Shown: positions 40,138 to 56,884 of the stretch, one piece after another
Numbering within the stretch: the stretch's first letter is position 1
Layout of the letters: every line of letters begins with the position of its first letter
From: an uncultured Gammaproteobacteria bacterium
GTDB taxonomy: Bacteria > Patescibacteriota > Microgenomatia > UBA8517
Direction: 5' to 3'
NCBI GenBank assembly: GCA_964502815.1
Contig: CAZCXV010000001.1
Span: forward strand, 71,907 to 135,906
Length of the DNA stretch: 64,000 nucleotides
Notes under the pieces: generated by a model
What the model was told of the DNA's origin: nothing
Database searches by the model: none
Seen by the model: the letters and a program-made list of their open reading frames with translations, nothing else
Program-made: the position numbers and the translations under genes

Positions 40138-41805
40138 TTAATTTACAACTATTTGAAAATACAAATGGCCGTTTGAGCCATAGATATTTTTAACAATATT
40201 TGCTTCATCAGGAATTTCCTCATCAGTGCCAATAATTAAACTATTTGGGTTTTCTGGACGCATTTGGTCAAAATCTATTGAAGTAAACTCATATTTGTCG
40301 AATTTTCTGACAGTTGAAAAACCATAGCCATCTCTAGATGTTAAGCTGTGATCTTTTTGAAATTTCTGGGGAGAATACTTCTGGTAAAAAAGAAAGAGGA
40401 TATATGGTTGGTCATATCTATCGGTAATCATCACTTTATTGTATTTGTCCTGATTTTTAGAAACATAATCAACTAATTCTTCCAAACCATACTGGGAAGA
40501 GAAAGTATATTCTTTGGCTAAGTGAACATAATACATATGAAGGTATCTGGCAAAACTCCATACAAGTATCAATACTAATGCAGCGTAACTTAAACTGAGA
40601 ATTTTTTTATTTTTTAGAACAACTCTCAACCATCTTCCTATACTAAAGAAACCAAAAGCACTAATAATAGTTATCGGAAGAACCATATTTTGTGACCTTA
40701 AGGCATGCGGCGACTGGAAAGTTAAAGCAGCAGCACTCGGAGCAACCAAAAACCAATAAATAACAAATAACCAGCCTTTGGTATTTTTCTTAGCACTAAT
40801 GCTTTTAACAATTGCAGTCAAACCAACTAAGATGAAAACAACTTCAACAAGATACAACTGCCCCGTTTCTGGTACTCTATTTCTCTGTATCTCATCCCCT
40901 GACAAAAACAAAAATTCACCATAATAATGTTGACTCCAATTATAGAAAAAGGCCAAGCCATAATTAACCAACTTATTGTGTGTCAATTTAGCAAATTTGC
41001 TTTGATAGCTGGTGTGTTCTCCCCGCTGTTCTTCTACTCTGGCAATGGGGCCACTATCTGCAAACAAACCAACACCACTAACTCTGGATGTAATTGCCGG
41101 TTTGGTTAAATCCAAGGCCAAAGGTAGCAAAAGAATTATTCCAACAATCACACCAATAACTAATTTCTTAATGTTTGGCCAGATATTTTTGAAGTAAATT
41201 ACAAACAGGCCCAAGCCCAAAAGAGGAACAATTATTCTGGCAGAATGATAGGTATATAAAGAGAGAACAAAGAAAAGGACCGACAGCAGCAAATATTTGA
41301 GATTTAACTTTCTAGACACTGCTTCTAAAAAGAAATACACTCCCGAGGCCATCAGAAAGCAGGCAAAGTTTACTTCCCAGCCACCTCTAGAAAAGTGAAT
41401 ATGCCAAGGAGAAATGGCCAAAAATAAAGCAGACATTAAAGCCAGATTCTCATTATCAAAAAGTCTTTTAACAAGACGGTAAAGCACAAAAACGGTCAGT
41501 ACTCCGGCAAGTGCCCCAGGTATTCTTACCGCCCAAATATTTAAGCCAAAAAGCTTCACAAATGGCATGACTACATAGAAGAAAAACCCCGGCTTGTAGT
41601 CATTAAAAGATTGGAAATGTACTGGCCAAGAGTTGCCGTGCTCATCTTTGCTAGTTTCCAAAAGCGAGTAAACATTGTAGCCAATCGCTACTTCATCGGC
41701 GTTTAAAGCAGGCAAACTGCCTAGACTATAAAACCTCAAGACAAAAGCAAGCATTAAGATACAAATTAAAAGTAGTTTTTGGTTAGCAAATATTTTTTTA
41801 AACAT
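40138..41805 (-). CDS. GT-C glycosyltransferase, PMT/ArnT-like (GT39/GT83, PMT_2 family), paralog 1 of 7
   Basis: Loop-1 DE motif …LNADEVAIGYNVYSLLETSKDE…. Second motif ISPWHIHFSRGGWE. About 11 TM helices and a C-terminal periplasmic domain. 555 aa. Confidence 0.6.
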   Translation of the reverse strand: MFKKIFANQKLLLICILMLAFVLRFYSLGSLPALNADEVAIGYNVYSLLETSKDEHGNSWPVHFQSFNDYKPGFFFYVVMPFVKLFGLNIWAVRIPGALAGVLTVFVLYRLVKRLFDNENLALMSALFLAISPWHIHFSRGGWEVNFACFLMASGVYFFLEAVSRKLNLKYLLLSVLFFVLSLYTYHSARIIVPLLGLGLFVIYFKNIWPNIKKLVIGVIVGIILLLPLALDLTKPAITSRVSGVGLFADSGPIARVEEQRGEHTSYQSKFAKLTHNKLVNYGLAFFYNWSQHYYGEFLFLSGDEIQRNRVPETGQLYLVEVVFILVGLTAIVKSISAKKNTKGWLFVIYWFLVAPSAAALTFQSPHALRSQNMVLPITIISAFGFFSIGRWLRVVLKNKKILSLSYAALVLILVWSFARYLHMYYVHLAKEYTFSSQYGLEELVDYVSKNQDKYNKVMITDRYDQPYILFLFYQKYSPQKFQKDHSLTSRDGYGFSTVRKFDKYEFTSIDFDQMRPENPNSLIIGTDEEIPDEANIVKNIYGSNGHLYFQIVVN

Positions 41806-41813
41806 ATCTTAAG

Positions 41814-43514
41814 TTATTCTTTCACCTCCACTATCTTGAAAGCTGTATCTTTACCATTCAAGTATTTTATCTCTTTTATAAGCTTAAACTCTGTTTGACT
41901 TACAGAGTCTGCATCTGGAATTCTAACAGTATCCCCCACTATCAGATTTCCCTTGTCACCTCTATTTACTGACCAATCAATGGCTCCAAAAACAATATTC
42001 TCAAGTTTTTCCACTTGGCCAACATCCCCTGTTTCACTTTCTATAAGCTTTGAAATTGCCTGATATTTGGCGGGATCATATTTTTGGTAGAAAAGAAAAT
42101 AAATATATGGCTGGGCATAGCTTTGTTGCACCAAAACTTTCTGGTAGTTATTTTGAATAGGTATTACTGTTTCAACAATTTGCTTGTAGCCATATTCCCA
42201 GTATTTAGAATCATGTTTTGGCAAATGGACAAAGTAGGCATCTATAAAGTAAACAAAATTGCCTACATAAAAGAATATTGCAAAAACAAAGACTAAGCTC
42301 CTAAGGACAGGTAACTTTAAGCTTTTAAGTGCATTAAAAATCCAAACCAAACCAAAGCTGTTTATTACTATCATTGGAATCAACATATTGAAAGATCTGA
42401 CTGCATGCACCTGATCCCGCGACAGGGCTGCAGACAAAGGCGCCAGAAGCATCCACAGGAGAATAAATAGTTTTTCCCGACTCATTTTCTCTCTCAAGAA
42501 AAAGATTAAGCCAGAGATCAATAAAAACATGTCGGCAATTAAAAATTCTCCCTGATTAGGTGGAGAATGTCTGGGATTTTGCCAGTCTCCATAGAAAAAT
42601 AAAAATCTGGCTGAAAAATGATTGAAATATCTTCCCAATACCCCTCTTAAAAAGTTATAGCCTTCTGAGTGAAAAAGATAATAGTCTAAACTCCCAATTT
42701 TTTCTCCTCCTTGATGCAAAAATGTCTGGATGTATTCTTGTGGTCTTGGATATGAAAAGACACTAAAAACAGCCAATCTCCCAGTCTTACCTGAAAAAAG
42801 ACTTAGAATAATTGGTAAGGAAACTAAAAATCCAATGAAAACTGGAACGAGTAAGCCTTTGGCTTTTAACTTGAACAAATCTCTCCAATACAAAAGCGTT
42901 AACACTATAATCACAATGCCAGTAGAAAGCTTTGCGCCTTGATAGGTAACAAATGTTAAGGCAAAAAAAGCTGCCGAGAGCATTAGATATTTTTGCTTGT
43001 CTAAACCGGCGAAGAAGAAATAAATACCTGCTAAAGTAAGCGTTAAAGCCAAATTTATTTCCCAAGCACCTCTGGAAAAATGAATATGCCAAGGAGAAAT
43101 GGCCAAAAGCAATCCTACCACCAATGAATAAACATTTTTAGCCTTTTGGTCTTCGTTTGCAAAAAGCTTTCTAACTATTAAATACACTAAATAGACAGCA
43201 ACAATTCCAGAAATGGCACTAGGAAGTCTAACTGCTGTTTCATTTAAGCCAAAAATAACCACAAAAGGAACAGTTGCATAAATATATAGCCCTGGCTTAT
43301 AGTCGCCAAATGACTTAAAAATAATTGGCATGAACTTTCCATATTCATCTTTGCCAGTTTTTAAAATCGAGTAAGCATTATAACCAAGAGAAGCCTCATC
43401 GGGCGTCAGATGTGGAGGAACATTTGCTAAGTTATACAATCTTAAAAAAGATGCCAATAAAATAATTACAACCAGAAGAGTTTTACTGTCCGCAAATTTC
43501 TTAAGTTTAATCAT
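41814..43514 (-). CDS. GT-C glycosyltransferase, PMT/ArnT-like (GT39/GT83), paralog 2 of 7
   Basis: Motifs …LTPDEASLGYNAYSILKTGKDE… and ISPWHIHFSRGAWE. 566 aa. Confidence 0.6.
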   Translation of the reverse strand: MIKLKKFADSKTLLVVIILLASFLRLYNLANVPPHLTPDEASLGYNAYSILKTGKDEYGKFMPIIFKSFGDYKPGLYIYATVPFVVIFGLNETAVRLPSAISGIVAVYLVYLIVRKLFANEDQKAKNVYSLVVGLLLAISPWHIHFSRGAWEINLALTLTLAGIYFFFAGLDKQKYLMLSAAFFALTFVTYQGAKLSTGIVIIVLTLLYWRDLFKLKAKGLLVPVFIGFLVSLPIILSLFSGKTGRLAVFSVFSYPRPQEYIQTFLHQGGEKIGSLDYYLFHSEGYNFLRGVLGRYFNHFSARFLFFYGDWQNPRHSPPNQGEFLIADMFLLISGLIFFLREKMSREKLFILLWMLLAPLSAALSRDQVHAVRSFNMLIPMIVINSFGLVWIFNALKSLKLPVLRSLVFVFAIFFYVGNFVYFIDAYFVHLPKHDSKYWEYGYKQIVETVIPIQNNYQKVLVQQSYAQPYIYFLFYQKYDPAKYQAISKLIESETGDVGQVEKLENIVFGAIDWSVNRGDKGNLIVGDTVRIPDADSVSQTEFKLIKEIKYLNGKDTAFKIVEVKE

Positions 43515-45222
43515 ATTTGTAATTTTTTAGTATTTCAAAAGCCGGCTTGCCATTTAGAAAATTGATTGTTTTAATGTCTATCCAACTGCCCCCGATGTCA
43601 CTTCCAGGTGATGTAATTAATAAACACCTAAGGTGTTCACAGTTTACTTCAACTTTACTCTCGGTAACAAACTTTTGACCAACTTCAGAGCCGATATCCC
43701 AGTCATTTACAAAGTAAAATTTATCAAAACTATCAACCCAATACCAATTGGATTGATAGAAACGATTTAGATTCAAATCAGATCTATATTTAGCAGGATC
43801 CCAAGGCCAGTAAAAAAGAATAAATTCGTGTGGCTCACCATATTTTTTAGTAATAATTATTTTATCGTAATTTTGATAGTTCTCCTTTAAATAAGTAGTC
43901 AGTTCTTTGTATCCATACTGCCATGACCAAGAATAATCATTAGCATAGCTTGTTATGTATTTTGCAGAATAAAGACCCAGGCTAATTAGTAAAATACCTA
44001 AATAAGTAGCTGTAAAAAGTTTAACTTTCAAGTTGTTCCTTTTCACCAAAAAATCTACAATTCCAAAAAAACCAAATGCAGATAAGATCTCTGGAAGAGG
44101 TAGCAGAGCAGAAGATCTCAACACTGCATATCTTTCTTGAGTAATACTAGCTGGAATTGGAGCCAGAAGAAGCCAGATTAGAACTAAACGATAATCTTTA
44201 TTTATTCTTGCTTTCTTAAATAGAATTACTAAACCAAAATAGAAGAAAGGTAAGTTTATAAGATACAAAAGACCATGACCCGGTAAACTAAATTGATACT
44301 GTGTTCCGCCTGTCAAAAACAAAAACTGGGGCGAGAAATAATCCAGATAGTTTTTGCCAAATTCTTTTAAAAAATAGACTGGCCGGTTGTAAATTAGTTT
44401 ACTTACCTCACTCGGCAACTTTGACTGTTGTCTATTCTCGATAATTTTGGCAACTGCGCCTTCATCAATCAAAAAAACCATATTGGATCTAGCCCTAGCG
44501 GTTGGCGAGAAAAGAATAAAAGGCAGTGGAATGAAAAATAGTGCCAATAAAACAATCATTGGAAGTATACCTCTTGCCTTAGTTTTTAACTGGGATAATA
44601 TTTCTTGACGATATGTAAAGATCACAAGAAATAACAGAAGTGGAGAAAATATCCTAGTTGTATGATATGAAAAAAGTGTTAAGCCAAAGCTTAGGGCAGC
44701 CAAAAGTAAAAAGATTCTATTTTTACTTCTCTGTACAAATAAAGCTGCCGCAGTGGTCAAAAAGAAAATTGCCAAGTTTGATTGCAGGACAAATCTTGAT
44801 GTAAACAAAGTCCAGGGGTCAACTGCAACAAGCAAACTTGCGAGAAATCCATACTTTTTTTTCTTAGTTAAGCCTACTGTAAAGAAATAAGTTCCCAAGA
44901 CTGTCCCTACTCCTAAAAGCGCATGTGGGAATCTAATCCCAAACTCGTTTAGGCCAAAAACTACAATTGAGGGAATTGTTAGATATAAATTTAGAGGCAA
45001 AGGATAGTCCCCATACGCACGAAAATTAGTAATAGGTAAAGTTTGTCCCCATTCATCTTTACCCGTTTTTAAAATTGAGTAAGCATTATATCCATGGCTT
45101 ACTTCATCCCAATTCAGGCTTACCGGAAATTTTCCTAAAAAGGTGAATCTCAAGATACCGGCCAAAATAATAATTAAAACTAACAGACTATTGTTGTTAA
45201 TTAAGTTTCTTATATTTTTCAT
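43507..45222 (-). CDS. GT-C glycosyltransferase, PMT/ArnT-like (GT39/GT83), paralog 3 of 7
   Basis: Motifs …LNWDEVSHGYNAYSILKTGKDE… and VDPWTLFTSRF. 571 aa. 8-bp overlap with the upstream paralog. Confidence 0.55.
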   Translation of the reverse strand: MKNIRNLINNNSLLVLIIILAGILRFTFLGKFPVSLNWDEVSHGYNAYSILKTGKDEWGQTLPITNFRAYGDYPLPLNLYLTIPSIVVFGLNEFGIRFPHALLGVGTVLGTYFFTVGLTKKKKYGFLASLLVAVDPWTLFTSRFVLQSNLAIFFLTTAAALFVQRSKNRIFLLLAALSFGLTLFSYHTTRIFSPLLLFLVIFTYRQEILSQLKTKARGILPMIVLLALFFIPLPFILFSPTARARSNMVFLIDEGAVAKIIENRQQSKLPSEVSKLIYNRPVYFLKEFGKNYLDYFSPQFLFLTGGTQYQFSLPGHGLLYLINLPFFYFGLVILFKKARINKDYRLVLIWLLLAPIPASITQERYAVLRSSALLPLPEILSAFGFFGIVDFLVKRNNLKVKLFTATYLGILLISLGLYSAKYITSYANDYSWSWQYGYKELTTYLKENYQNYDKIIITKKYGEPHEFILFYWPWDPAKYRSDLNLNRFYQSNWYWVDSFDKFYFVNDWDIGSEVGQKFVTESKVEVNCEHLRCLLITSPGSDIGGSWIDIKTINFLNGKPAFEILKNYKYD

Positions 45223-46828
45223 TTGTTTTAAACTTTGTATATAAAGCCAAGAAAAGTAAAATTGAGAACAGGCTTAGGTAATTACCAATTTTTCTGTATA
45301 GCGTATCTTCAAATTTTAAAACAATCTCACCTTCTGTTTCTTCGATTTCAATCAATCCATCCCTTGCTGGAGTCGTTTTAAGTTTTTTGCCATTTGAATA
45401 TGCCTGCCAACCTGGAAAGTAGTTGACCGGAAATGCTATTTTTCCGTAAGAATCAGAAACATTGTAAACAATCTCGTTTGATTTTTTGTCAACCAGTGTC
45501 TGGCCGCCAAAACTCTCAGGTGCGATCTTGTTAGGTATGACCGGAGAATATATTGGCCAGTAATCGCCTACCGAAGCGTGTTTTTGTTCTTCCAAGAGTC
45601 CTCCTGATGATAAATCAGTATCTGAATAATTGTGCCAAATATCCGGCCTGAAGTAAGAGGAGTTCAAAACAAAAAGCCCAACCATAATTGCAACCAGACT
45701 TGGAATTGTAAGTTTTCTTGGCAGTACTTTTATAAATACGCCTGATGCTAAACTCAAAGCAAAAACTAAGATACCCAAGAATCGCCATGGGAACTGAATA
45801 AAAGACATTTGGTAGATATAGTCCCAAACGACAATAGATCTATTGTTAATTAGAAAGACAATTACAATACTTATTAGTATTAAAACAACAAAATCTTTGT
45901 ATTCCCAGAGCTTTCTTTTGAAGAATAAGACTATTCCAGTTGCAGCTGGAATAAGCCACTGGAAAAAGCCGATTGAAATATTTAGGTCATCATCTGATCC
46001 AAATAAAGAAGCGCCATAACCCCAATTAACTGAAAAAAGAAGCTGTTTTATGCCTGCAAAATGACCTCTAAAGTTAAAATAGCCTTTAATGGTGTTATCA
46101 AGCGAAACATATTTTGACTCAAAGACAATCGGTAAAACGTAAAAACTCACTATTCCAAGAGACAGTAATCCCGCCAAAAAAATTGCACCTACAGTCTTGA
46201 TCTTTCTATATATAACCAATCTGTAAATCATCCAAATTGTCAAGAAAGGCATAAATAAAACAAATGAGAGATTGTGGTTAAGTATTAGAAATGCCAAAAA
46301 CAAACTAAACAACATTAGATCACTTTTCTTCTTCGCCTTTAGATATTTTTCCAAAAACAAAATAATCAATGGATAGAAAACAAAGCTCAGACTTTCTGGA
46401 AGCGCTCCTCTGACCCAAACATCAACTGCTCTATAGGGCGCATAAAGATATATAGCAGCACTTAAGAATGCCGAATATTTACTACCCCACATTTCACGAG
46501 CCAAAAAATACATCGCTACAGCAGAACCTATTAAAGAAAAAATAAAGAGAAGCTTAAGACTATCAACCAAGGAAAAGCCCAATAAGTGAAAAATTTCCCC
46601 GAAAGCATATGACAATTGACCATAGAAGACAAACAGTGGTTCGCCGTAACCCAGACCTACATCAGGTGACCAACGGCAAGGCAGTTGTAAGTCCTTGACA
46701 CATTTATCAAACTCAAAAAGCCTAAAAAAGTGAAAGTCTTGCATGGAAAATATGCCTGGCTTAAGCATTAAGTAAAACGTTGGAATAGACAAAAGAATAA
46801 TTAGTCCAAAAAATAAAAACTTTTTCAT
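45197..46828 (-). CDS. polytopic membrane protein, GT-C-like (family distinct from the PMT-like paralogs)
   Basis: 543 aa, about 13 TM helices. No DE…LKTGKDE motif. Embedded inside the PMT-like tandem array with 26-bp and 4-bp overlaps. Confidence 0.3.
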   Translation of the reverse strand: MKKFLFFGLIILLSIPTFYLMLKPGIFSMQDFHFFRLFEFDKCVKDLQLPCRWSPDVGLGYGEPLFVFYGQLSYAFGEIFHLLGFSLVDSLKLLFIFSLIGSAVAMYFLAREMWGSKYSAFLSAAIYLYAPYRAVDVWVRGALPESLSFVFYPLIILFLEKYLKAKKKSDLMLFSLFLAFLILNHNLSFVLFMPFLTIWMIYRLVIYRKIKTVGAIFLAGLLSLGIVSFYVLPIVFESKYVSLDNTIKGYFNFRGHFAGIKQLLFSVNWGYGASLFGSDDDLNISIGFFQWLIPAATGIVLFFKRKLWEYKDFVVLILISIVIVFLINNRSIVVWDYIYQMSFIQFPWRFLGILVFALSLASGVFIKVLPRKLTIPSLVAIMVGLFVLNSSYFRPDIWHNYSDTDLSSGGLLEEQKHASVGDYWPIYSPVIPNKIAPESFGGQTLVDKKSNEIVYNVSDSYGKIAFPVNYFPGWQAYSNGKKLKTTPARDGLIEIEETEGEIVLKFEDTLYRKIGNYLSLFSILLFLALYTKFKTNEKYKKLN

Positions 46829-48438
46829 TTTGAAACTATGACAACGGCTGGATCACCATTTGGATAATTAATTGTCTCTAGCGTGGTCACTGTCATACCT
46901 TGAAAATCATCTATCTTGCCAATCAAGTAGGTATCTTCAGCCAAGTCGTCGCCTTCAATATCTTTAAAGGTGTACTTGCCAAGTTTATATTCAGGCATTT
47001 GATCTACCCAATTAACGTCGCTTTCTTTATACCTCCAATCTTTGGAATAGTTTTGATAAACAGCTGGATCAATTCTTTGTGCAAAAGCTGTATATATGTG
47101 CGGCTCGGACAAAGATTTATCAACAATTACCTTATTGCCGTCATTTGGCAGTTTTTCCAGAGCTTCGAGTCGGCCATACAACATAGCTTTTGCAGTTTTA
47201 TGTTGTGATTCAATAAAGTAATCTTCCAAGAAGAATACAACAGAAATAAACATTACTAAGCTAAAGACATAGATTACTAACTTATATTTCTTGAGGAAAG
47301 TGAAAAAATAATAAGCTCCGACTCCCAATAAAATCTCAATAGACGGCATCATAATTGCTGCTCTATTGGCAGAATAGCCCACGCCAGTTGCCAATGAAGT
47401 TGGTATCACAGAGAGAAGCATCCAGAGAACAAGAAATACCAACCACTTTCTTGCGCTTTTGTTGTCATCTTTGGAAAATGCCTTCCCTAAAAACAAAACA
47501 AAGAGAATACTAAACCAATACAACACACCCCTACCTGGAATCATGCCATATGTGGCTTCGTTTGGACCATTAGCAAATAGAAATTGGGGGGATAAATAAG
47601 TGACATAGTTGCCAGCAAACCTTTCCACAAAAACCAAGTATTTATTGTGAAAAATCCTCGACAGTGCATAAACTTGTGTTCCATACAAACTCTTTCTTTG
47701 GTTAAAAGCTTCTTCCAAAGCACCTTGCGTAATGCTTCTTTCAGCAACCCTTGCCCCAGCACCTGCAAAAAAAGTATAAACAGTGAGTAGTATAAAGCCA
47801 GAAAAGGCAATTATTGCAACAAGTATGTCTTTGTTTGGTTTTATTAGATAACCTTTCAATTCTTGCCATTGAAGTACTACCAAAGTTAAAAGAATAAAAG
47901 GTGTAACAACTTTTGCCGAGTGGTAGCTAAACAAATTCAAACCCATAATAATAGCAGCAAGGCTAAATTTCTTGTTTAAGAAAAAAAGTACCCCAAGCGG
48001 CAGAAAGAAGGTTGTTAAATTTGCTTCAAATGCCCCTCTTGAGAGCATGATATGCCATGGAGAAATGGCTAACATTAGGCTTGCAAAAAGAGCGACACCT
48101 TCTTTTTTGAAGAGTTTTTTAGATAGTAAATAGACAACTACTACTGCAAATGATCCCAAAAGTGCATTTGGCAGCCTAACTGCAAATTTAGTCAAGCCAA
48201 AAAGAAAAATAAAAGGAACTGTCAAATAGGTATATAAAGGTGATTTATAGTCTCCGAAAGATTCAAAAACCAAAGGCCAAGATTTTCCCCATTGATCTTT
48301 GCCTGTTTTCAAAAGTGAATAGGCATCGTAGCCAAAAGAAGCCTCGTCAGGTGTAAAGCCAGTTGGGTGAGTTGTCAAGCCAATAATCCTTGCCACCAAG
48401 CCAACTATACATATGCCAATCAAAAGCCACTTGTGCAT
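46825..48438 (-). CDS. GT-C glycosyltransferase, PMT/ArnT-like (GT39/GT83), paralog 4 of 7
   Basis: Motifs …FTPDEASFGYDAYSLLKTGKDQ… and ISPWHIMLSRGAFE. 537 aa. Confidence 0.6.
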   Translation of the reverse strand: MHKWLLIGICIVGLVARIIGLTTHPTGFTPDEASFGYDAYSLLKTGKDQWGKSWPLVFESFGDYKSPLYTYLTVPFIFLFGLTKFAVRLPNALLGSFAVVVVYLLSKKLFKKEGVALFASLMLAISPWHIMLSRGAFEANLTTFFLPLGVLFFLNKKFSLAAIIMGLNLFSYHSAKVVTPFILLTLVVLQWQELKGYLIKPNKDILVAIIAFSGFILLTVYTFFAGAGARVAERSITQGALEEAFNQRKSLYGTQVYALSRIFHNKYLVFVERFAGNYVTYLSPQFLFANGPNEATYGMIPGRGVLYWFSILFVLFLGKAFSKDDNKSARKWLVFLVLWMLLSVIPTSLATGVGYSANRAAIMMPSIEILLGVGAYYFFTFLKKYKLVIYVFSLVMFISVVFFLEDYFIESQHKTAKAMLYGRLEALEKLPNDGNKVIVDKSLSEPHIYTAFAQRIDPAVYQNYSKDWRYKESDVNWVDQMPEYKLGKYTFKDIEGDDLAEDTYLIGKIDDFQGMTVTTLETINYPNGDPAVVIVSK

Positions 48439-50084
48439 TAATTAAGTATAGCTTGGGTTCTGATGATATAAAAGGCTGGTTCCCCACTAGGAGCAAAAAT
48501 CGTTTTATCCAGCCTAAGTTTAGGATCTCCGGAGAATTCTGATGGATACAGTCTAGCTGCAGGAAAAATGAAAATCGTGCCTGTGCTTCCACGTTCACTT
48601 GGCCAATCAACTTGTCTAAATTCAAACCGACCAACTTTTTCTGGCCTTATTTCAGCAGGATTTTGATAATAATCTTTGCTAGGAAGTAAATTAGCAGCCT
48701 GTGTTTGGTAAGCTTTCATTGGCACTATCTGATAGAAAAGCAGATTAATATAACTTTCAGTACGGGCATCGTCGATAACGACTCTTAAATTATCTGGTTG
48801 AGTTTTTAGATAGCCAGCAATTTGCTTGTAGCCATAATCCCAATCACGCCAGTAAAATACTGGTGTAAACTTTAGTAAGCTAAACATAAAGGTAGAAACT
48901 GAAAACAAAGTCACGATAACGTAAGAAATGGTTGCAAGTTTTTTCAGTTTAGTTGTCATTTGTAGCGCTTGATAAATACCAATTGCAATTATTATTGAAA
49001 CAGGCAACCAGAAAAGAATTGACCTATAAGTATGGAAAGGGTCACGCGTTAGGGCAGCAGGCAATGGTCCAAGAAAAAGCCAAATCAGTAAATACTTCTT
49101 GTTTTGCAAAAAACTATGCTTTATACCAAACTTGTTTTTGAGAATTGTCCACAAGCCGATAATGAAAAAAGGCAATTGCCAGAAATAGAAGACACTGAAG
49201 TTTGGCAACCTTCTTTGAACATTATAGTCTCCCTGCCAAAAAATATTTGCTGGAGAAAAATAATGCAAATATAAAGATAGGATTTCCCTGGGTACCAGGT
49301 AGAACTTTTGCCAATCTCCCGAATCGCTTCTGTAGCCAGGAACTGGCATGCTACTAGAAAAAATACTTACTCCCACTGCCCGGTGATAACCTGCAGCTTT
49401 AGTGGTCAAGCTCAAAACTGGAAGGTAGAGAACTATTGCCAAAACCGCTCCAACTATCCAAAGCTTCCACTTTTTCCACCAAGCTTTTTCTAGAATTATT
49501 GATATGGCAATAAATAAAGGTGCCACCGGTCTTGGAGCTTGATAACTATACATTGACAAAACAAAAGCAATAATGCTTAGTAAAAACCATTTATTTAGGT
49601 TTGACTGCTTAAACTTCAGCCAAAGATAAACTCCAAAAGCAAAAAACAGTAGTGATAAATTACCTTCAAAAGCCCCTCTACTATAAAAAATTGCCCACGG
49701 AGAAGTGGCTACAATCAAGGCAGAAATTAGACCAATTACTGGATTGTTAGTAATTTTCTTGGTCAACAAATAAGCAAGGTAGGTAAGTGCCACTCCAGAC
49801 AGGGCTGATAAAAATATGGCCGAAAATTCATTTGGTCCAAAGATGGCAAAAATAGGAACTGAAAGATAAACATAGGCAGGCATAAAAAATACTTCAAACG
49901 ACCTAAAAATGATTGGGTATTTTTGGCCAAACTCATCCGCTCCGGTTTTTAAGATCGACCAACTGTTAAAGCCCAAGGCAGCTTCATCTCTAAAAAAACC
50001 TAAGTCTGCAGACCCAAGATGGTAAAAACGCAAAACAATAGCCAGTGAAATAATTAGAAGTAATAACTTATTGTTAGACATCAT
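48438..50084 (-). CDS. GT-C glycosyltransferase, PMT/ArnT-like (GT39/GT83), paralog 5 of 7
   Basis: Motifs …FFRDEAALGFNSWSILKTGADE… and TSPWAIFYSRGAFE. 548 aa. TAATG 1-nt stop/start overlap with the downstream paralog. Confidence 0.6.
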   Translation of the reverse strand: MMSNNKLLLLIISLAIVLRFYHLGSADLGFFRDEAALGFNSWSILKTGADEFGQKYPIIFRSFEVFFMPAYVYLSVPIFAIFGPNEFSAIFLSALSGVALTYLAYLLTKKITNNPVIGLISALIVATSPWAIFYSRGAFEGNLSLLFFAFGVYLWLKFKQSNLNKWFLLSIIAFVLSMYSYQAPRPVAPLFIAISIILEKAWWKKWKLWIVGAVLAIVLYLPVLSLTTKAAGYHRAVGVSIFSSSMPVPGYRSDSGDWQKFYLVPREILSLYLHYFSPANIFWQGDYNVQRRLPNFSVFYFWQLPFFIIGLWTILKNKFGIKHSFLQNKKYLLIWLFLGPLPAALTRDPFHTYRSILFWLPVSIIIAIGIYQALQMTTKLKKLATISYVIVTLFSVSTFMFSLLKFTPVFYWRDWDYGYKQIAGYLKTQPDNLRVVIDDARTESYINLLFYQIVPMKAYQTQAANLLPSKDYYQNPAEIRPEKVGRFEFRQVDWPSERGSTGTIFIFPAARLYPSEFSGDPKLRLDKTIFAPSGEPAFYIIRTQAILN

Positions 50085-50088
50085 TAAT

Positions 50089-50664
50089 CTACCTATTAAG
50101 GGTAATTACGATAAATAAAACTATTTCAAGCGCTGAAAATAACCCCAAAGCGATTTTTCCCTTTAAAGGCCAGGTAAAAACTCTTTGCAATCCCAATGCC
50201 ATAACCAAAATAAACGGAAGAGAAAGAAAAATTGTTTGATTAAAGTCCCGCCACTTGAACAAAAAAACAAACAGAAGTAAAACACTAGTAGTAGTTAAAA
50301 GAAAATTTTTATATTTTTTTATACTTTTACTTGTAAAACCAACCATCATCAAAACTAATTGAAAAACAAAGAACTTTTGTTTTTCTTCAATGCCAACTCT
50401 TTCTCTCGGATGACCTATAAAAAAATAGTTGCCAATGTCCAAGTTCTCCATAACAACAGCAAGTCTTTGGGCAACAAACTTTGTCGGCCAATTAATGAAA
50501 ATGGAATTTAGTGGACCAGGTTGTACTTTCCCCCTTTCCCAAACCACCTCAGTTCTAGCTTGTTGAATATCTTTGTTGAGTTCTAAATTAAACATCTCCT
50601 TTGGAATAGGAGCATACCAAAACCAAGGCGTCAAAAGAATCACTAATAAAGTAGCCAATATCAT
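50089..50664 (-). CDS. small polytopic membrane protein, paralog of the C-terminal half of 52644-53480 (GT39-associated accessory protein)
   Basis: 191 aa. Shares the …NYFFIGHPRE… / …NYFFGFQPRQ… motif and following TM helices with 52644-53480. Directly upstream of a PMT-like gene. Confidence 0.35.
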   Translation of the reverse strand: MILATLLVILLTPWFWYAPIPKEMFNLELNKDIQQARTEVVWERGKVQPGPLNSIFINWPTKFVAQRLAVVMENLDIGNYFFIGHPRERVGIEEKQKFFVFQLVLMMVGFTSKSIKKYKNFLLTTTSVLLLFVFLFKWRDFNQTIFLSLPFILVMALGLQRVFTWPLKGKIALGLFSALEIVLFIVITLNR

Positions 50665-50683: not shown

Positions 50684-51370
50684 ATGTGGATGAAATTGTC
50701 TGTAGTTATTCCAGTTCTCAACGAAGAAAAAACGATAAATAAAATACTCATTAAAGTTCTAAAACAAAAAAGCGCTGTTGAAGTAATTGTTATAGATGAT
50801 GGATCGACGGATAGGACGCTAGAAGTTTTAAAGAACTTCAGCAAAACAAATAAAAAAATAAAACTTCTTCGCCACAAAAAAAACTTAGGCAAGGGAGCGG
50901 CAGTGATCAACGGATTGAAAAAAGTAAGTTCGGACTATCTATTAATTCAAGATGCCGATTTAGAGTACAATCCTGATGAGTATATCAAGCTTGTGTCTAA
51001 GGTTAGTGCCGACACAGTTGTCTATGGATCAAGAATGATAAAAAAGAACACCCATGCTTATGAAAGAACATATATCGGAAACCTTGTTCTCACTTATATC
51101 TGCAATTTTCTTTTTGGAACAAAGCTAACGGATTCTTATACTTGCTACAAACTGTTGCCCACAAAGATTGCAAAAAAACTAAATCTTAAATCTCAAGGGT
51201 TTGAGTTGGAAGCAGAGATTACTGCTAAGCTTGCCAAAAAGAAAATTAATATATTTGAAGTCCCAATTTCATACTCACCACGAAAATACGAAGAAGGCAA
51301 AAAAATAAAAGCGCTTGATGCCCTTAAGGGAGTATTTACCTTATTAAGGATTAAGTTTACAAATTACTAG
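50684..51370 (+). CDS. GT2 polyprenyl-phosphate sugar synthase (DPM1-like, soluble short form)
   Basis: Motifs LSVVIPVLNEEKTI, VIDDGSTDRT and QDADLEYNPDEY. 228 aa. The start may be the second ATG (MKLSVVIP, 50690). Confidence 0.6.
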   Translation: MWMKLSVVIPVLNEEKTINKILIKVLKQKSAVEVIVIDDGSTDRTLEVLKNFSKTNKKIKLLRHKKNLGKGAAVINGLKKVSSDYLLIQDADLEYNPDEYIKLVSKVSADTVVYGSRMIKKNTHAYERTYIGNLVLTYICNFLFGTKLTDSYTCYKLLPTKIAKKLNLKSQGFELEAEITAKLAKKKINIFEVPISYSPRKYEEGKKIKALDALKGVFTLLRIKFTNY

Positions 51371-52620
51371 TATTTACTTCTTTTCCAAATGACCAAAATA
51401 GCTACAAAGACTATTAAGTTTATACTCGCCAAAATATAAGACAACGGAGAGTTTATCAAAATATTCTCCAAAAAAGGCAATGGTGGTACCCAGAAAAGAT
51501 GATATAAGTTAACTAAGTTTGAAAGTGACAAAAAGACAAGTGGAATCAGCCAAATCGGATTCAAACCAACTAACAGCGTTACATAGGGGAAAAATGGATA
51601 AAGATAGCGTTCATGAATTCTGGTCATAAAAAGAAATGAAGTTAATGAAATCACTACTAAAATAGTAAATACTTTTTTTTCACTAATTTTTTTCATTAAA
51701 TAAAAAGAAGAAAATGCAATTACTGAAAGAAGGGTTATTATTCCCCAAACTCTTGCCGACAAGCCAAGATACGCGGCGGAATCCAAAGTCTTTCCTGAGT
51801 CGACCAGCCACCAAAAATTGAAGGTATTGGCCGTTAGTGAGCCAATTTCGCCTGGGAAAAATTTCTGGGTATACAGGTTGTATAAATAGATTGGCAGGTC
51901 AAAAGCGGGATGAAACCAAACAGCAATTGCAATCACAACCAAACAACTTAAAGCACATGCTTTCAGCCAAGTGTTAAATTTGTATTTTTGGAGTAAAGCA
52001 ATTGCAAAAATACTTGGAACAAAAATAGCCAATGAACCTTTAAACAGCAAAGATAAGACAGTGAAAACACCAGCTTTGACCAGTTTTTTATCCATTAAAG
52101 CAACAATTGCAACAAGTCCCAGTAAGTTAACTGTTGCATCAGTTTGACCCCAAAGAGCTGAGTTGTACCAAATTACTGGATTAAAAAGCCAAAGAAGGGA
52201 GATCTTCTCCCCTATTTTTTTCTTCCCCTTTTTAGAAAAAAATTTATATAAAACCACAGCTATTAAAAAGTCAGCGATTATTGCCGGGGTTTTAACCAAC
52301 AAATCCATGCCTTTCAGTTCCCAAAACCAAATAAATGAAGATGGAAAAAATGCAAGCTTGGCATTAAGATCCCAAGAGATATCGGCAACTGTTTTATAAA
52401 CAAACGACGTTAGAGAAAAAAGCAAAATATAGAGTGGTGGCTGATTGGGAGCCGAAAATGGCCAGGCTTTACCATCGTAATAATTTACCAACCCTCTTGA
52501 AACCGCCTCATTCCCCCAGGAGATGTTATTGTTTAAATCACCATGATGAGCTTGAAAAACAAGCCAAATTCGAAAGATGAAGGCAAGTATCACTAAAAAC
52601 AGCAGCAATTTTCTATTCAT
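51367..52620 (-). CDS. polytopic membrane protein, GT-C-like (DUF2029/GT87-like?)
   Basis: 417 aa, about 11 TM helices. N-terminal loop with HHGDLNN…YYDGKAW… and a WGQTD segment. Family assignment is tentative. Confidence 0.3.
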   Translation of the reverse strand: MNRKLLLFLVILAFIFRIWLVFQAHHGDLNNNISWGNEAVSRGLVNYYDGKAWPFSAPNQPPLYILLFSLTSFVYKTVADISWDLNAKLAFFPSSFIWFWELKGMDLLVKTPAIIADFLIAVVLYKFFSKKGKKKIGEKISLLWLFNPVIWYNSALWGQTDATVNLLGLVAIVALMDKKLVKAGVFTVLSLLFKGSLAIFVPSIFAIALLQKYKFNTWLKACALSCLVVIAIAVWFHPAFDLPIYLYNLYTQKFFPGEIGSLTANTFNFWWLVDSGKTLDSAAYLGLSARVWGIITLLSVIAFSSFYLMKKISEKKVFTILVVISLTSFLFMTRIHERYLYPFFPYVTLLVGLNPIWLIPLVFLSLSNLVNLYHLFWVPPLPFLENILINSPLSYILASINLIVFVAILVIWKRSKY

Positions 52621-52643: not shown

Positions 52644-53480
52644 ATGTTTAAAAAACGATTTTTTATAATCTCTCTAATACTGATTTATTGGCCTTTAAGT
52701 ATCTTTTTTGCCAACACTCCAAAGGATTTCCTAAATTATCTCTTGCCAACCTTATTAATTCTGATAGCCTATCTACTCTACAGAAGAAAAAACCAGTATT
52801 ATCTTGTTCCCACACTAGCTATTCCTTTTATTCAACCAAAATTAGCTGTTTTACCTTTAGTATTTGTGATAATTGATGGTATTTATTCTTTTAAATCGAA
52901 AAAGAAAATCAATAAATTTGTTATTATTGCTTCTCTAATTATTCTAATGCTCTTTTTTAAGCCTTTTAGAAACCAAAGCATCTTTGTAACTGACAATAAT
53001 TCTAAACAAGAAGTTATTCAAAAAATACATTTATATCCAAACATTCCACTAGCCAGACTATTTCAAAATAAAGCCAGAATTTACCTTGATAAATTAAACA
53101 ACAATTTTTTCTCCCTGACTGACCCAAGCAATTACTTCTTTGGCTTCCAACCAAGACAAATTAGCCTAAACAATCAAAATTTGGATAAATATCCATTTTT
53201 AACACTCATTCCTTTTCTTTTTGGCACCTATTATTTTGGCAAAAATAAAAACTTAAAGTTTATTTTAATAACTTTTATAGGATCAATCCTCACTCTATCT
53301 CTACTAACAAATTTTGACCGGCATGACTTTATCTTATGGCTACCAATAAGCTTAGTTATTATCTTTGGCTTAGACAAACTGGAAAGTAAACTGGCTAACA
53401 AAACTAAATATTTCAATTTTATTTTTGTTCTTTTCGGCATCGCCCAGTTACTCAGATTATTTGTCCAATATTTGAAATAA
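52644..53480 (+). CDS. polytopic membrane protein; C-terminal half paralogous to 50089-50664 (GT39-associated accessory protein)
   Basis: 278 aa. Shared NYFFG.QPR motif and TM topology. Stop is 1 nt before the start of the PMT-like gene 53482. Confidence 0.35.
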   Translation: MFKKRFFIISLILIYWPLSIFFANTPKDFLNYLLPTLLILIAYLLYRRKNQYYLVPTLAIPFIQPKLAVLPLVFVIIDGIYSFKSKKKINKFVIIASLIILMLFFKPFRNQSIFVTDNNSKQEVIQKIHLYPNIPLARLFQNKARIYLDKLNNNFFSLTDPSNYFFGFQPRQISLNNQNLDKYPFLTLIPFLFGTYYFGKNKNLKFILITFIGSILTLSLLTNFDRHDFILWLPISLVIIFGLDKLESKLANKTKYFNFIFVLFGIAQLLRLFVQYLK

Positions 53481-53481: not shown

Positions 53482-55137
53482 ATGAAGAAACTATTCCCAC
53501 TATTTTTAGTATTCACAGCAATAGCAATTGCCACTGTTACCAGATTTTATCTCCTAGGCATTGCTCCAGCAGGCCTATATCTTGATGAAGCCGGTCAAGG
53601 TTATAGCGCCTACTCAATTTTAAAAACCGGTAAAGATGAATTTGGCAAAGCATTTCCAATTGTCTTTAGATCATTTACTGATTTTAAAACCCCTATTTAC
53701 ATTTATTTAATAGTTCCCCTTATAAATATCTTTGGACTTACAAAATTTACAGTTAGATTTCCATCTTTTTTCTTTAGCATCCTTACTTTTCCAATTCTAT
53801 ATTTCTTAATCAAAGAGATAACTGACAAGAAGATTTCGACAGTTGTTGCGGTAACTACCTCTTTTCTATTTGCCATCTCTCCTTGGCACATTCTTTTTGG
53901 CAGAACTAACTTCGAATGCAATGTGGCCTTGTTTTTCTTTCTGACAGGAGTTTTACTATTTTACAAAGCTTTAAAAAGACCTTATTTACTCATGTTATCG
54001 GCAGTCTTCTTTGCCATAGCCATTCCCGCCTACCATGCTCAAAGGATCATTACTCCTCTAATGCTTCTAGCTTTGTTTTTTAGATACAAAAGCACTCTTT
54101 TAACAAAAACACATTTCAAGTACTTGATAATTGGTTGTATCTTGGGGCTTATCATTAGTCTACCAACGCTTTCTATTGCCAACTCTTCTGGCTTTTTAGC
54201 TAGAGCTAGCGGCTTAAATATTGTTTCACATTCCAGACAAAAACCAGCAGGTTACCTGGAAGACTATCAAGGACTATTGTCACCTATTGTCAACAGTTCC
54301 CTACTTTTAACTACCAGGGAATTTCTAGCACTATATCTTTCCTATTTCTCCCCCAGAAATATGTTTATCTTGGGGGACTCGGGACTAAGAAGCTCCTTTC
54401 CCGAACTGTCAACTTTCTTTCTTTGGCAGTTTCCGTTCTATATTTATGGCTTATATCTTTTAGTTAAAAGAAAAGATTTAGGCGAGCTGAAGTTTTTCAC
54501 CCTTGCTCTTCTTTTAATCTCACCTCTTCCTGCAAGCTTAACCCGTGATCCTTATTCAACCATTAGATCTTTGCAGATGGTGATTCCACAAAACTTAGTT
54601 ATTGGCCTGGCAATAGCTGATGTTTATCACAGACTGACAAAAACCAAAAAACTGATTTTCTACACAGTTTCACTTCTGGTAATTATTTACTCACTAGCAA
54701 AACTGTATAGCTCTGTAATTGTCTTGAATGAGTACTACCGAGGCCAACTCTGGAATTATGGCTGGGAAGAGGCAATACAAACAATAAACACCTTAAACAA
54801 GAACCTTCCAATTATCGTAGATAATTCCAGAGATGAGCCATATATTCATCTTTTGTTTTTCCTAAAGTATGACCCAGCAAAATATCAGCAAGACAACAAC
54901 GAAGTAAAAGAAAGCGAATACTACACTAATATGGCCAACGACAAAGAAAAACAGATAGGTATGATCGTCACCAGGTCAATCAATTGGGAAAAGGATTTGT
55001 TGCAAGAACAATACTTAATTGGAGATGAACTGGCAATTTCGGTTGGCCAAATAAAAGAGCATAACCTAACTTTGATAAAAGAGATAAAATACCCAGATGG
55101 AAATGTTGCCTTGAGAATTACAAAAACCAATCCCTAA
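53482..55137 (+). CDS. GT-C glycosyltransferase, PMT/ArnT-like (GT39/GT83), paralog 6 of 7
   Basis: Motifs …LYLDEAGQGYSAYSILKTGKDE… and ISPWHILFGRTNFE. 551 aa. Confidence 0.6.
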   Translation: MKKLFPLFLVFTAIAIATVTRFYLLGIAPAGLYLDEAGQGYSAYSILKTGKDEFGKAFPIVFRSFTDFKTPIYIYLIVPLINIFGLTKFTVRFPSFFFSILTFPILYFLIKEITDKKISTVVAVTTSFLFAISPWHILFGRTNFECNVALFFFLTGVLLFYKALKRPYLLMLSAVFFAIAIPAYHAQRIITPLMLLALFFRYKSTLLTKTHFKYLIIGCILGLIISLPTLSIANSSGFLARASGLNIVSHSRQKPAGYLEDYQGLLSPIVNSSLLLTTREFLALYLSYFSPRNMFILGDSGLRSSFPELSTFFLWQFPFYIYGLYLLVKRKDLGELKFFTLALLLISPLPASLTRDPYSTIRSLQMVIPQNLVIGLAIADVYHRLTKTKKLIFYTVSLLVIIYSLAKLYSSVIVLNEYYRGQLWNYGWEEAIQTINTLNKNLPIIVDNSRDEPYIHLLFFLKYDPAKYQQDNNEVKESEYYTNMANDKEKQIGMIVTRSINWEKDLLQEQYLIGDELAISVGQIKEHNLTLIKEIKYPDGNVALRITKTNP

Positions 55138-55141
55138 ATTC

Positions 55142-55163
55142 ATTTAGTTCCAGTAAACTAAAT
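55142..55163. terminator. short AT-rich hairpin between convergent PMT-like genes (possible bidirectional terminator)
   Basis: atttagtt-ccagta-aactaaat, an 8-bp stem and 6-nt loop between the stops at 55137 (+) and 55163 (-). Weak, AT-only stem. Confidence 0.2.
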
Positions 55164-56884
55164 TATTCATTTTTCCCGGAAAAAATATAAAATGCTGGTT
55201 CTCCAGAAGGATAGGTAATGGCTTTAATAAGTTTTAAGTCTGCCGGTGTTCTTTCTGGTTCCAGTATCAAGTTAACATTCACTTCTTTTGCAGATGCCAG
55301 ATACAAAGTTTTACTATCCAATACTTTTCCCCAGTCATACAAACCACCAACAGGCGAGCCAAAGTAGAATTTATTAATATGCGATACCTTTCCAAAACCA
55401 GCAAGTTCTACATCCCGCCCTATTGGGAAATCTTTCTGCCAGGAAGATGGATCGTATTGATATAAACTTGCAAAAAATATCCATGGTGGTTCGCCTCTAG
55501 TTGAAATTGCAACTTTGTCATAGTTTCCATCAATCTCATTTACAGACTGGATTGCCTGTTTAAAGCCTGCATGCCACCACCTTTCACTATACGTAGGATT
55601 ATGCACCCAGTAATTGTGTTGATATGAGAAAAAGAATAAAGCGAAAATAAATACATAGCCAGCCATGGCAAGTTTTCTGTACTTTTTGTTTTTAACTAGG
55701 TTTAGGCCTTCCAGAATTCCATATGAAACTAATATTGCTAAGGCTGGCAACATCAAGATAAGTCTGGTGGCATGATTGCCACCATCTCTGGTAATTGCTG
55801 CTGGGACGATTGAGGCTAAGGCTAGAAAGCCAATAACCAATTTTAGTTTTGTACTTATACTTTTGCTAGCAAAGAAAAGCACTATACCAAAAAGCAAGGC
55901 CACTGCCTCTATTTTGTAAAATAACCCCATACCCTCAATAGTGTGCCTAGGGTTTGGATCCCCACTATTAAATAAGAAGTCAGCAGAAAAAGGCTGGAGA
56001 TAGTTATTTAATACCTTTTCTCCCCAGAAAGTAAATTTATTGTGCACAAGTCTATCTAGTTTGGTTGGATTTAGGCCAGTTCCAGTTTCTCCCCTGGCTC
56101 TGGCGTCAATTCCTCTGGCAGTTCCTACTTCTGGTTCAGTTGTTGGGTCGCTAAAAACACTAATATAGCCAAACCTTTGGGCTCCACCTCCAAACACTGT
56201 ACTGTAAGCAATTGGCCCTCCCACTACTAAAAAGGCAATCAAAGCAAAAACTAAGTATTTCACTTTTACCTTAAATATTTCTTGCCTGTAAAGAAGAAAC
56301 AAAAACACCAATAGAAGTGGTGTAAACAGTTTTGCAGTACTATAAACCCAAGGGGTGAGCCCAAAACAAACCGCCGAAAGCCAAAAATGCTTTCCATCTT
56401 CTTTTAAGCCTTTAAACAAGAAATACAATCCCAAAATCAAAAAAAATAGAAGTTGAGTTACTTCAAAACCGGCTCGGGAATATTGAATATGCCAAGGAGA
56501 AAAAGTTAAAACTACTGCAGCCAAAAGCGCCCACTTCTCACTGCCAAAAAGTTGTTTTACCAGTAAATAAAGTGCATAAATTCCAAGTATGCCAAAAATG
56601 GCAGCTGGCAGCCTTACACCATATTCACTTAAACCAAAAACAGCAACTGTTGGCACAGCAGAGTACAAATATAATGGTGTTCGCCACTCAGCCAGTGAAT
56701 GAAAATGAAGTGGCATAAAGTTGCCATAGTAGTCTTTTCCAGTTTTTAAAATTGAATAGGCTTGATAGCCAACATCCAACTCATCACCAAACATACTCAC
56801 TGGAACTTTATCTAGAGCAGACATTCTTAGGAAGGTTGCAATAACTAGAATAGTTAGAAGTATCCAAGAAGATTTAATTTTCAT
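55163..56884 (-). CDS. GT-C glycosyltransferase, PMT/ArnT-like (GT39/GT83), paralog 7 of 7
   Basis: Motifs …MFGDELDVGYQAYSILKTGKDY… and FSPWHIQYSRAGFE. Start placed at MKIKSSWILL (ATGA overlap with the upstream GT2 stop), which matches the N-terminal length of the paralogs. The track ATG is at 56917. Confidence 0.55.
   Translation of the reverse strand: MKIKSSWILLTILVIATFLRMSALDKVPVSMFGDELDVGYQAYSILKTGKDYYGNFMPLHFHSLAEWRTPLYLYSAVPTVAVFGLSEYGVRLPAAIFGILGIYALYLLVKQLFGSEKWALLAAVVLTFSPWHIQYSRAGFEVTQLLFFLILGLYFLFKGLKEDGKHFWLSAVCFGLTPWVYSTAKLFTPLLLVFLFLLYRQEIFKVKVKYLVFALIAFLVVGGPIAYSTVFGGGAQRFGYISVFSDPTTEPEVGTARGIDARARGETGTGLNPTKLDRLVHNKFTFWGEKVLNNYLQPFSADFLFNSGDPNPRHTIEGMGLFYKIEAVALLFGIVLFFASKSISTKLKLVIGFLALASIVPAAITRDGGNHATRLILMLPALAILVSYGILEGLNLVKNKKYRKLAMAGYVFIFALFFFSYQHNYWVHNPTYSERWWHAGFKQAIQSVNEIDGNYDKVAISTRGEPPWIFFASLYQYDPSSWQKDFPIGRDVELAGFGKVSHINKFYFGSPVGGLYDWGKVLDSKTLYLASAKEVNVNLILEPERTPADLKLIKAITYPSGEPAFYIFSGKNE

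Follow-up and report, generated by a model that had tools for sequence, protein, structure and literature searches.

In mycobacteria a single envelope polysaccharide is assembled on the outer side of the membrane by paralogous GT-C enzymes (embC-embA-embB, AftA-D, PimE and Mpt), which use polyprenyl-phosphate sugars and of which some are encoded in tandem. Each of these enzymes has its own linkage or acceptor, and their C-terminal outer domains bind the acceptor. ArnT (GT83; Cupriavidus metallidurans 5EZM/5F15), the undecaprenyl-phosphate-L-Ara4N:lipid A transferase, is a protein of 13 membrane helices encoded by a single-copy gene. The Pmt proteins of GT39 form a multi-paralogue family with distinct substrates in yeast (Pmt1-7), and Pmt is also present in actinobacteria; to our knowledge, Pmt-bearing bacteria normally carry one copy. 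In this study we analysed a stretch of 64,000 nucleotides, hereafter the window, from an uncultured member of the Microgenomatia (Patescibacteriota; GenBank assembly GCA_964502815.1, contig CAZCXV010000001.1, positions 71,907 to 135,906). Seven genes of the window, here called A to G, encode paralogous polytopic membrane proteins of the PMT_2 family.

The mycobacterial GT-C set is the closest functional analogy to this locus, an analogy and not a family membership. ArnT is similar to the paralogues in fold and domain architecture at 14% identity, but in place of a single-copy gene there is a conserved array of 5-7 paralogues, 11 membrane helices are predicted instead of 13, and the acceptor of ArnT, lipid A, is not expected in these organisms. 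In contrast to the Pmt proteins, the paralogues lack MIR and PMT_4TMC domains and are clustered with a Wzx flippase and Leloir glycosyltransferases. A genome of the Candidate Phyla Radiation (CPR) without genes for lipid A/lipopolysaccharide biosynthesis, e.g. lpxC and kdsA, has been described (PMC5220378), and GT39 in bacteria has been little studied (PMC11727336). In three-component systems a GT2 that makes a polyprenyl-phosphate sugar, a small membrane flippase and a GT-C enzyme together modify finished glycans outside the membrane (PMC11127046; Kelly et al. 2024, GT136). The layout of such systems (GtrA/GtrB/Gtr, CsbB-YfhO, GT136) is resembled by a unit of a candidate synthase gene (the GT2 at 50684-51370), the small membrane protein m191 and paralogue E, and two YfhO-family proteins are encoded in the window. 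Unlike in three-component systems, the core five paralogues have no individually paired synthase, m191 matches no known family and bears a weak resemblance to part of a GT-C protein, and no flippase of the GtrA, MATE or ArnE/F type was recognised with Pfam among the scanned window open reading frames (ORFs) of at least 150 aa.

Sequence comparison indicates that five of the seven paralogues (A, B, C, D and G) belong to ancient, non-redundant orthogroups in a syntenic array that extends across the Microgenomates lineage. As an overall explanation we lean slightly towards a conserved envelope-glycan pathway, in which the paralogues would carry out non-redundant extracytoplasmic steps.

Results

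Family assignment and fold of the seven paralogues

The reading frames of all seven genes are intact and encode proteins of 537-584 aa. A (40138-41805, 555 aa), B (41814-43514, 566 aa), C (43507-45222, 571 aa), D (46825-48438, 537 aa) and E (48438-50084, 548 aa) lie on the minus strand, F (53482-55137, 551 aa) on the plus strand and G (55163-56917) on the minus strand. G is 584 aa long when read from a TTG and 573 aa when read from the ATG at 56884; the ATG suits the paralogue alignment better, the TTG adding 11 N-terminal aa beyond all other paralogues. In the hidden Markov model search PMT_2 (PF13231) matched all seven proteins above its gathering threshold of 26.1 bits, with scores between 30.7 and 59.3 bits (A 57.5, B 40.1, C 31.0, D 30.7, E 55.1, F 34.1, G 59.3). 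PMT (PF02366) was above its cutoff of 22.7 bits in five of the seven (A with 33.2, C with 39.9 and D with 30.6 bits, as well as E and G) and absent in B and F, and no Pfam match to MIR or PMT_4TMC was detected in any of them. The curated Pmt model of NCBIfam (NF058602) reached 28.4 bits, in C only, against a cutoff of 800, and the curated ArnT equivalog (PRK13279) 16.1 bits, in A only, against a cutoff of 567. Neither the large C-terminal carbohydrate-binding module of Emb type nor the Emb family signature was found in the paralogues.

When the PDB was searched by sequence alone only weak matches to ArnT and STT3 were obtained, and a fold comparison was therefore needed. The AlphaFold2 model of B, built from 62 sequences (pLDDT 91, pTM 0.91), has the GT-C_A polytopic membrane fold. 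Its top Foldseek match in the PDB was ArnT (5F15/5EZM, E ~3e-7, TM 0.5); further neighbours were AglB/STT3/PglB, ALG12/ALG9, Pmt4, Pmt1/2 and AftD/A/B, and EmbA too. The C-terminal domain is modelled as a small alpha/beta domain and not as a beta-trefoil. We concluded that the paralogues are GT-C enzymes with an ArnT-like layout, outside the curated ArnT and Pmt families. Their superfamily is a known one, and public records already label these proteins GT39/ArnT-like. An earlier interpretation of the same DNA from its letters and ORFs (the sequence-only reading) had proposed seven genes of a PMT/ArnT-like GT-C family in these places, and the ORFs as well as the family were confirmed by the PMT_2 matches and by the fold of the B model.

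The seven paralogues align over their full length at 26-37% pairwise identity (E and F at 33.5%), and DNA repeats among the copies are limited to motif-coding blocks of 60-90 nt with 60-89% identity. They are real and old paralogues, and not assembly duplicates of one gene, which is excluded by the low identity between copies; on this point the earlier interpretation stands. An independent Logan contig carries D, the YfhO-family gene that follows it (see below), C, B and A at 100% identity. Practically no weight was given to the idea that the copies arose by faulty assembly or represent a single gene with decaying pseudogene duplicates; nothing was found in its favour, and it is ruled out by the 26-37% identity, the intact frames, the own orthologues of each copy, the identical Logan contig and the restriction of repeats to motif blocks.

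Orthogroups and synteny across Microgenomates

The distribution of the array was scanned with one genome per GTDB species, and 80 loci of ~21 kb each, chosen by similarity to B, were returned. Loci with taxon-specific names came from Woese-, Shapiro-, Ames-, Levy-, Collier- and Blackburnbacteria and from other Microgenomates, and one locus was labelled Parcubacteria. The number of family members per locus ranged from one to seven; in nearly all of the 80 loci they were arranged in tandem and numbered 2-7, typically 5-6 in full 21-kb loci. When each ORF was assigned to its best window gene, the recurrent order was [GT2 GT2] G-m417-D-(YfhO)-C-B-A-GT2-(SDR)-GT4-m378-Wzx-GT2-GT4, in which m417 and m378 are membrane proteins described below. 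This order recurs in loci of Woese-, Shapiro-, Ames-, Collier- and Blackburnbacteria. At an identity of at least 38%, A was present in 69, B in 64, the GT2 after A in 63, C in 60, D in 36 and G in 26 of the 80 loci, the low counts of D and G being due in part to loci that end early and to the identity threshold.

In a neighbour-joining tree of 229 family members we found five clades with about one copy per locus, namely A (51 sequences from 48 loci), B (50 from 50), C (47 from 47), D (39 from 38) and G (30 from 30). E and F group together in a separate small clade and seldom occur beside the core cluster. Orthologues are 40-67% identical, whereas paralogues share 26-37%, and the duplications are therefore older than the diversification of these lineages. 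What the sequence-only reading had regarded as an unusual expansion is thus a tandem array found lineage-wide and syntenic in Microgenomates, with five ancient orthogroups of about one copy per locus. In the comparison with related genomes, as it had suggested, the number of members per locus was 1-7, and differences in presence or position concerned only E, F and some extra copies in other genomes.

Homologues of B number in the thousands. The best of them are 58-65% identical to B, with Candidatus Woesebacteria, Microgenomates and 'Patescibacteria group' metagenome-assembled genomes (MAGs) as named sources, and the public labels on B homologues read 'glycosyltransferase family 39 protein' or 'ArnT family'. 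By these homologues the window belongs to a Woesebacteria-like member of the CPR. A profile built from the seven paralogues matched 6,744 clusters (50% identity) at E ≤1e-30 among 1.84 billion representatives; of the best 150 matches most span essentially the whole profile. By their gene content and their synteny with the window, many MAGs that serve as GTDB representatives clearly belong to the Patescibacteria; their records are titled 'uncultured Gammaproteobacteria bacterium', which is evidently a labelling error in public records.

Conserved residues, regional divergence and topology

In the seven-way alignment the residues D39, E40, G44, S49, L51, T53 and D56 (B numbering) are invariant, as are P141, W142, R148, Y191, F306, G309, R373 and G442. 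Across the 229 sequences, conservation reaches at least 90% in every one of the five orthogroups at D39, E40, D56, R96, P141, W142, R148, Y191, R246, G309 and R373, and all five core orthogroups therefore look catalytically competent, with the loop-1 Asp-Glu as the presumed catalytic residues. Two motif blocks had been described as common to all seven proteins; the Asp-Glu pair and P141/W142/R148 are indeed invariant, while the exact strings vary. The second loop reads DPWT..SRF in C and SPWA..SRG in E, and the trailing KDE is replaced by KDQ in D, KDY in G and ADE in E. In the 61-nt stretch for the SPWHIHFSRG loop (41363-41423 and 43048-43108) the DNA of A and B is 89% identical, in proteins that are ~35% identical overall; either very strong constraint or gene conversion over a short tract may account for this similarity.

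Mean pairwise identity between paralogues was 25.5% in the C-terminal soluble domain, 23.9% in the C-terminal membrane half and 24.9% in the large outer loop, and only residues 1-75, the N-terminal catalytic-loop region, stood out with 44.5%. The C-termini are thus not especially diverged, contrary to what had been proposed from the sequence. Because synonymous sites are saturated at 26-37% amino acid identity, we compared identity within orthogroups and between paralogues region by region instead of calculating dN/dS. Identity within orthogroups is 35-56% in the outer loop (residues 241-325) and the C-terminal domain, against ~25% between paralogues, and these are the regions best conserved within relative to between orthogroups. 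This contrast fits paralogue-specific acceptor recognition. A strict scan for orthogroup-specific positions (at least 80% conserved per group, at least three different residues) returned only two positions and was uninformative.

With helices taken from the structure model, the density of Lys and Arg in short loops was 0.30 in loops assigned inside and 0.08 in loops assigned outside. The predicted topology has 11 membrane helices with the N-terminus inside and the C-terminus outside. By the positive-inside rule this difference in charge density places every conserved motif, the loop 241-325 and the C-terminal domain on the outer face, in agreement with the extracytoplasmic C-terminal domain already proposed.

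Genes within and around the array

Between C and D lies a gene for a YfhO-family GT-C protein (45197-46828, minus strand, 543 aa), which shares 26 nt with C and 4 nt with D. The protein matches Pfam YfhO (PF09586) with 48.6 bits against 28.5, in two stretches within residues 67-398, and the gene is found in the same interval between D and C in eight of the related loci. The five minus-strand PMT_2 genes are therefore not contiguous, and the minus-strand run contains six GT-C genes. The sequence-only reading had missed the YfhO-family gene and described a single array of five; the tight junctions it had noted are present, including the TAATG at the E/D junction (48438), but with overlaps of up to 26 nt. 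The complete run extends from 50664 down to 33162 in the order m191-E-D-YfhO-C-B-A-GT2-SDR-GT4-m378-Wzx-GT2-GT4, with junctions from a 26-nt overlap to an 8-nt gap. Such tight junctions suggest one operon. A consensus scan found fewer promoter-like sites than in shuffled sequences (38 vs 56.5) and the terminator pattern was uninformative; the operon structure is therefore read from the gene junctions only.

Downstream of A the run continues on the minus strand with a GT2 (39227-40132), an SDR (38540-39223), a GT4 (37443-38534), the polytopic m378 (36326-37462), which belongs to the conserved downstream part of the cluster, a Wzx-type flippase (35057-36322), a further GT2 (34300-35070) and a further GT4 (33162-34298), with assignments from Pfam. 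The gene order of this block (33162-40132) is the same after A in most loci. Upstream of G, two GT2 genes matching Pfam Glycos_transf_2 (56881-57678 and 57688-58584, minus strand) are found, and the order GT2-GT2-G recurs in at least 15 loci. The GT-C-like membrane protein m417 (51367-52620, minus strand) has no Pfam match itself, but is conserved between G and D and syntenic in most related loci. Its homologues are annotated as 'Gpi18-like mannosyltransferase' (JGI), and a few of them carry PF03155 (ALG6/ALG8) or PF13231; m417 probably acts as a further GT-C enzyme in the same pathway. When the family alignment was compared by hhalign with single sequences of m417, m378, m513 and YfhO, probabilities of 1-3.5% were obtained, which is uninformative without alignments for those proteins.

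Accessory paralogues E and F and their small membrane proteins

E has its own orthologues, 53-68% identical, in unrelated genomic settings. Directly upstream of E lies m191 (50089-50664, minus strand), a small polytopic membrane protein of 191 aa without a Pfam match, which weakly matches the family profile at positions 219-412, i.e. the middle and C-terminal membrane part, with 20.8 bits. Divergent from m191-E is the GT2 gene at 50684-51370 (plus strand, 228 aa, Glycos_transf_2 122.8 bits), a candidate polyprenyl-phosphate-sugar synthase of DPM1/AglJ/PpgS type. Among NCBIfam models it scored 117.8 bits with AglJ, 82.7 with PgfS and 60.5 with PpgS, and it resembles dolichyl-phosphate hexose transferases too, all below the curated cutoffs. 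The pair m191-E is kept in two loci of unrelated context (L082 and L083), with 50-57% identity for the m191-like protein of ~200 aa and 58-61% for E. The GT2 was found in one of these two, L083, where the whole unit is intact (6687-9620) with the GT2 again divergent (59% identity for GT2, 57% for m191 and 61% for E). GT2-m191-E thus appears to be a portable unit, with E as its GT-C enzyme, that was inserted into the core cluster between D and m417.

F, the nearest window paralogue of E, has a comparable neighbour. The small polytopic membrane protein m278 (52644-53480, plus strand, 278 aa), to which no family was assigned, is encoded directly upstream of F and weakly matches the family profile at positions 125-417 with 10.8 bits. 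The pair m278-F is also present in two other loci, in one of which (L007) the F orthologue is 62% identical. The matches of m191 and m278 both include the FlFxxG..R loop, and both proteins are without the DE loop and without the outer C-terminal domain. They may act as partner subunits or as flippases, or they may be what is left of GT-C genes.

Glycan-synthesis genes in the rest of the window

The window has 35% GC and no tRNA gene, and as a whole is a glycan-synthesis island, in which Pfam and NCBIfam scans recognised ~13 GT2, five GT4 and the Wzx flippase. It also holds a nucleotidyltransferase, two SGNH enzymes, a sulfotransferase (11658-12365, plus strand) and six S-adenosylmethionine-dependent methyltransferases (7087-7821, 16287-17150, 18036-18665, 31258-32052, 58581-59246 and others). 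The sulfotransferase and methyltransferases suggest that the glycan is extensively sulfated and methylated, an unusual feature in a bacterium with a genome of ~1 Mb. Two full-length GT2 genes of ArnC/GtrB/PgfS type (7869-8789 and 10700-11647, plus strand), whose products are candidate polyprenyl-phosphate-sugar synthases, reached 246.9 bits with PgfS and 173.1 and 174.5 bits with ArnC, below the equivalog cutoffs; the span 7869-11647 also carries two other GT2 genes on the minus strand. As further sources of lipid-linked donors these two enzymes are plausible candidates. The ArnC/GtrB/PgfS/AglJ-like GT2 genes of the window make lipid-linked donors, as assumed in the sequence-only reading, plausible.

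Additional GT-C genes were detected outside the array, at least four beyond its paralogues and the embedded YfhO gene. Two PMT_2 proteins of 669 and 655 aa (21517-23526 and 28724-30691, minus strand) are 40% identical to each other, and one of them has a weak, sub-threshold C-terminal match to F5/8 type C (discoidin-like); they form a separate GT-C subfamily that likely carries a carbohydrate-binding module. A second YfhO-family protein of 790 aa is encoded at 60783-63155 (minus strand). Weaker candidates, up to five in number, are large polytopic proteins that match PMT/PMT_2 or the family profile below threshold (among them 59249-60790, minus; 36326-37462, minus; 18634-21539, plus; 12376-14778, minus). 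In all, the window may encode 12-17 GT-C-type enzymes.

A set of genes resembling the Arn pathway comprises a formyltransferase (14765-15571), an ArnC/PgfS-like GT2 (15575-16303), a YdjC-family protein (17147-18052), a DegT aminotransferase (25087-26169) and a PglF-like dehydratase (26154-27569). This set hints that one donor could be a lipid-linked formylated amino sugar; the genes adjoin GT-C-like genes, and the first four are 20-30 kb from the seven paralogues and unlinked to them. Two small DUF5667 proteins (30714-31280 and 6607-7077, both minus strand) might be acceptors or accessory factors, and the one at 30714-31280 is syntenic with the cluster in four loci.

Discussion

In the envelope-glycan pathway that we favour, an oligosaccharide would be assembled in the cytoplasm on a lipid carrier, and Wzx would then flip it. 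A GT2 would make a polyprenyl-phosphate sugar on the inner face, which is flipped outward, and the GT-C paralogues would transfer the sugar at the outer face of the cytoplasmic membrane by means of the invariant loop-1 Asp-Glu. The paralogues would thereby extend or decorate the flipped oligosaccharide or the resulting envelope polymer, each adding a different residue or linkage. The gene cluster that is conserved in Microgenomates consists of A, B, C, D and G, the YfhO-type and the Gpi18-like GT-C proteins, 2-4 Leloir GT2/GT4 enzymes and Wzx. E would be a later add-on in a three-component-like layout, with a DPM1/AglJ-like GT2 and a small membrane protein, and F would have a comparable small membrane partner. 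We infer a pathway of several steps because the core five are single-copy, ancient and co-ordered, because they are tightly packed with Wzx and Leloir enzymes, and because their outer regions are conserved within orthogroups only. The donor class, a glycan rather than a protein as acceptor and one step per paralogue are likewise inferred.

Several observations speak against this pathway. The data fit a glycan and a protein acceptor alike, and one linkage for each enzyme is suggested by analogy only. An initiating phosphoglycosyl transferase, a Wzy-type polymerase and a GtrA-type flippase were not recognised in the window scans, and all matches of window GT2 proteins to polyprenyl-phosphate-sugar synthases are below curated cutoffs. 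The GT2 at 39227-40132, which is the one most tightly linked to A, gave no informative family match among NCBIfam models. Frequencies given for the cluster are biased, since the loci were ~21 kb long and chosen by similarity to B.

The main rival is that each paralogue is a protein O-glycosyltransferase, as bacterial Pmt and yeast Pmt1-7 are, with its own set of secreted or surface proteins (S-layer protein, pilins, sortase substrates). We regard this as a possible but clearly less likely explanation. The multi-paralogue PMT families of yeast count for it, as do the PMT matches above cutoff in five of the seven proteins and the DE motif, which is the loop-1 signature of PMT. PgfS, a GT2 of a protein-glycosylation system, is the best NCBIfam match of one window GT2. 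S-layers and pili have been reported on CPR cells and a sortase is nearly always present in Microgenomates (PMC13293708, PMC6744442). Yet the Pmt equivalog reached only 28 bits of the required 800, and that in C only, and neither MIR nor PMT_4TMC domains are present; the linkage to Wzx and Leloir GT2/GT4 genes suits the assembly of an oligosaccharide better than the transfer of single sugars to protein. The overlapping or near-abutting junctions, the fixed order and the approximately single copy of each orthogroup per locus would also be expected if the array encoded subunits of one or a few hetero-oligomeric machines, compatible with either acceptor. Dimeric GT-C enzymes have precedent, PDB titles among the fold neighbours list Pmt1-Pmt2, a Pmt4 homodimer and EmbA-EmbB, and the truncated GT-C-like m191 and m278 adjoin E and F. 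As all paralogues keep the full catalytic set, none looks purely structural, and we consider hetero-oligomers of EmbA-EmbB or Pmt1-Pmt2 style rather unlikely as the explanation of the array.

Variation of the surface from strain to strain, by copy number and C-terminal divergence, had been the proposal of the sequence-only reading, and it applies at most to E, F and the extra copies of some genomes. It is in keeping with the 1-7 family members per locus, including extra low-identity copies in some, with the differing presence or placement of E and F among genomes, and with the rest of the window, whose methyl-, sulfo- and formyltransferases and SGNH enzymes have few counterparts in the flanks compared. 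The five core paralogues, however, are single-copy and in the same order across class-level diversity, their orthologues are far more alike than paralogues, and their C-terminal domain is 35-56% conserved within orthogroups. Nor were repeats, phase-variable tracts or recent duplicates found. As an account of the whole array a variable surface-glycosylation system is therefore improbable.

The envelope-glycan pathway may be extended tentatively to a more specific picture, which we put forward as a speculation with less than even chances. Here the five PMT_2 paralogues with the YfhO-type and the Gpi18-like GT-C proteins would form a lineage-defining assembly line of Microgenomates, which builds an undescribed envelope glycopolymer on a Wzx-flipped primer. 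The paralogues would possibly act as hetero-oligomers, with m191 and m278 as new partner subunits or a flippase. By analogy, such a pathway could be the functional counterpart of mycobacterial arabinogalactan/lipoarabinomannan synthesis.

We searched the literature for GT39, PMT_2, ArnT, GT-C, mannosyltransferase and S-layer glycosylation in Patescibacteria/Microgenomates and found nothing specific. In the paper library searched, no description was found of the five-orthogroup array or its Microgenomates-wide gene order, of the embedded YfhO and Gpi18-like GT-C genes, or of the portable GT2-m191-E unit.

The structure and biogenesis of the cell envelope in CPR/Patescibacteria are unknown, and the conserved cluster provides a concrete handle on them. 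It supplies defined targets, namely five enzymes with a defined catalytic loop and the portable three-gene module around E. Although these ultra-small bacteria have genomes of ~1 Mb and a minimal metabolism, at least 64 kb of the window genome serve glycan synthesis, and in related genomes five or more paralogous outer-face glycosyltransferases are kept in fixed order. The product of the cluster is therefore central to the biology of these organisms, and is probably part of the surface that they use for attachment to their hosts.

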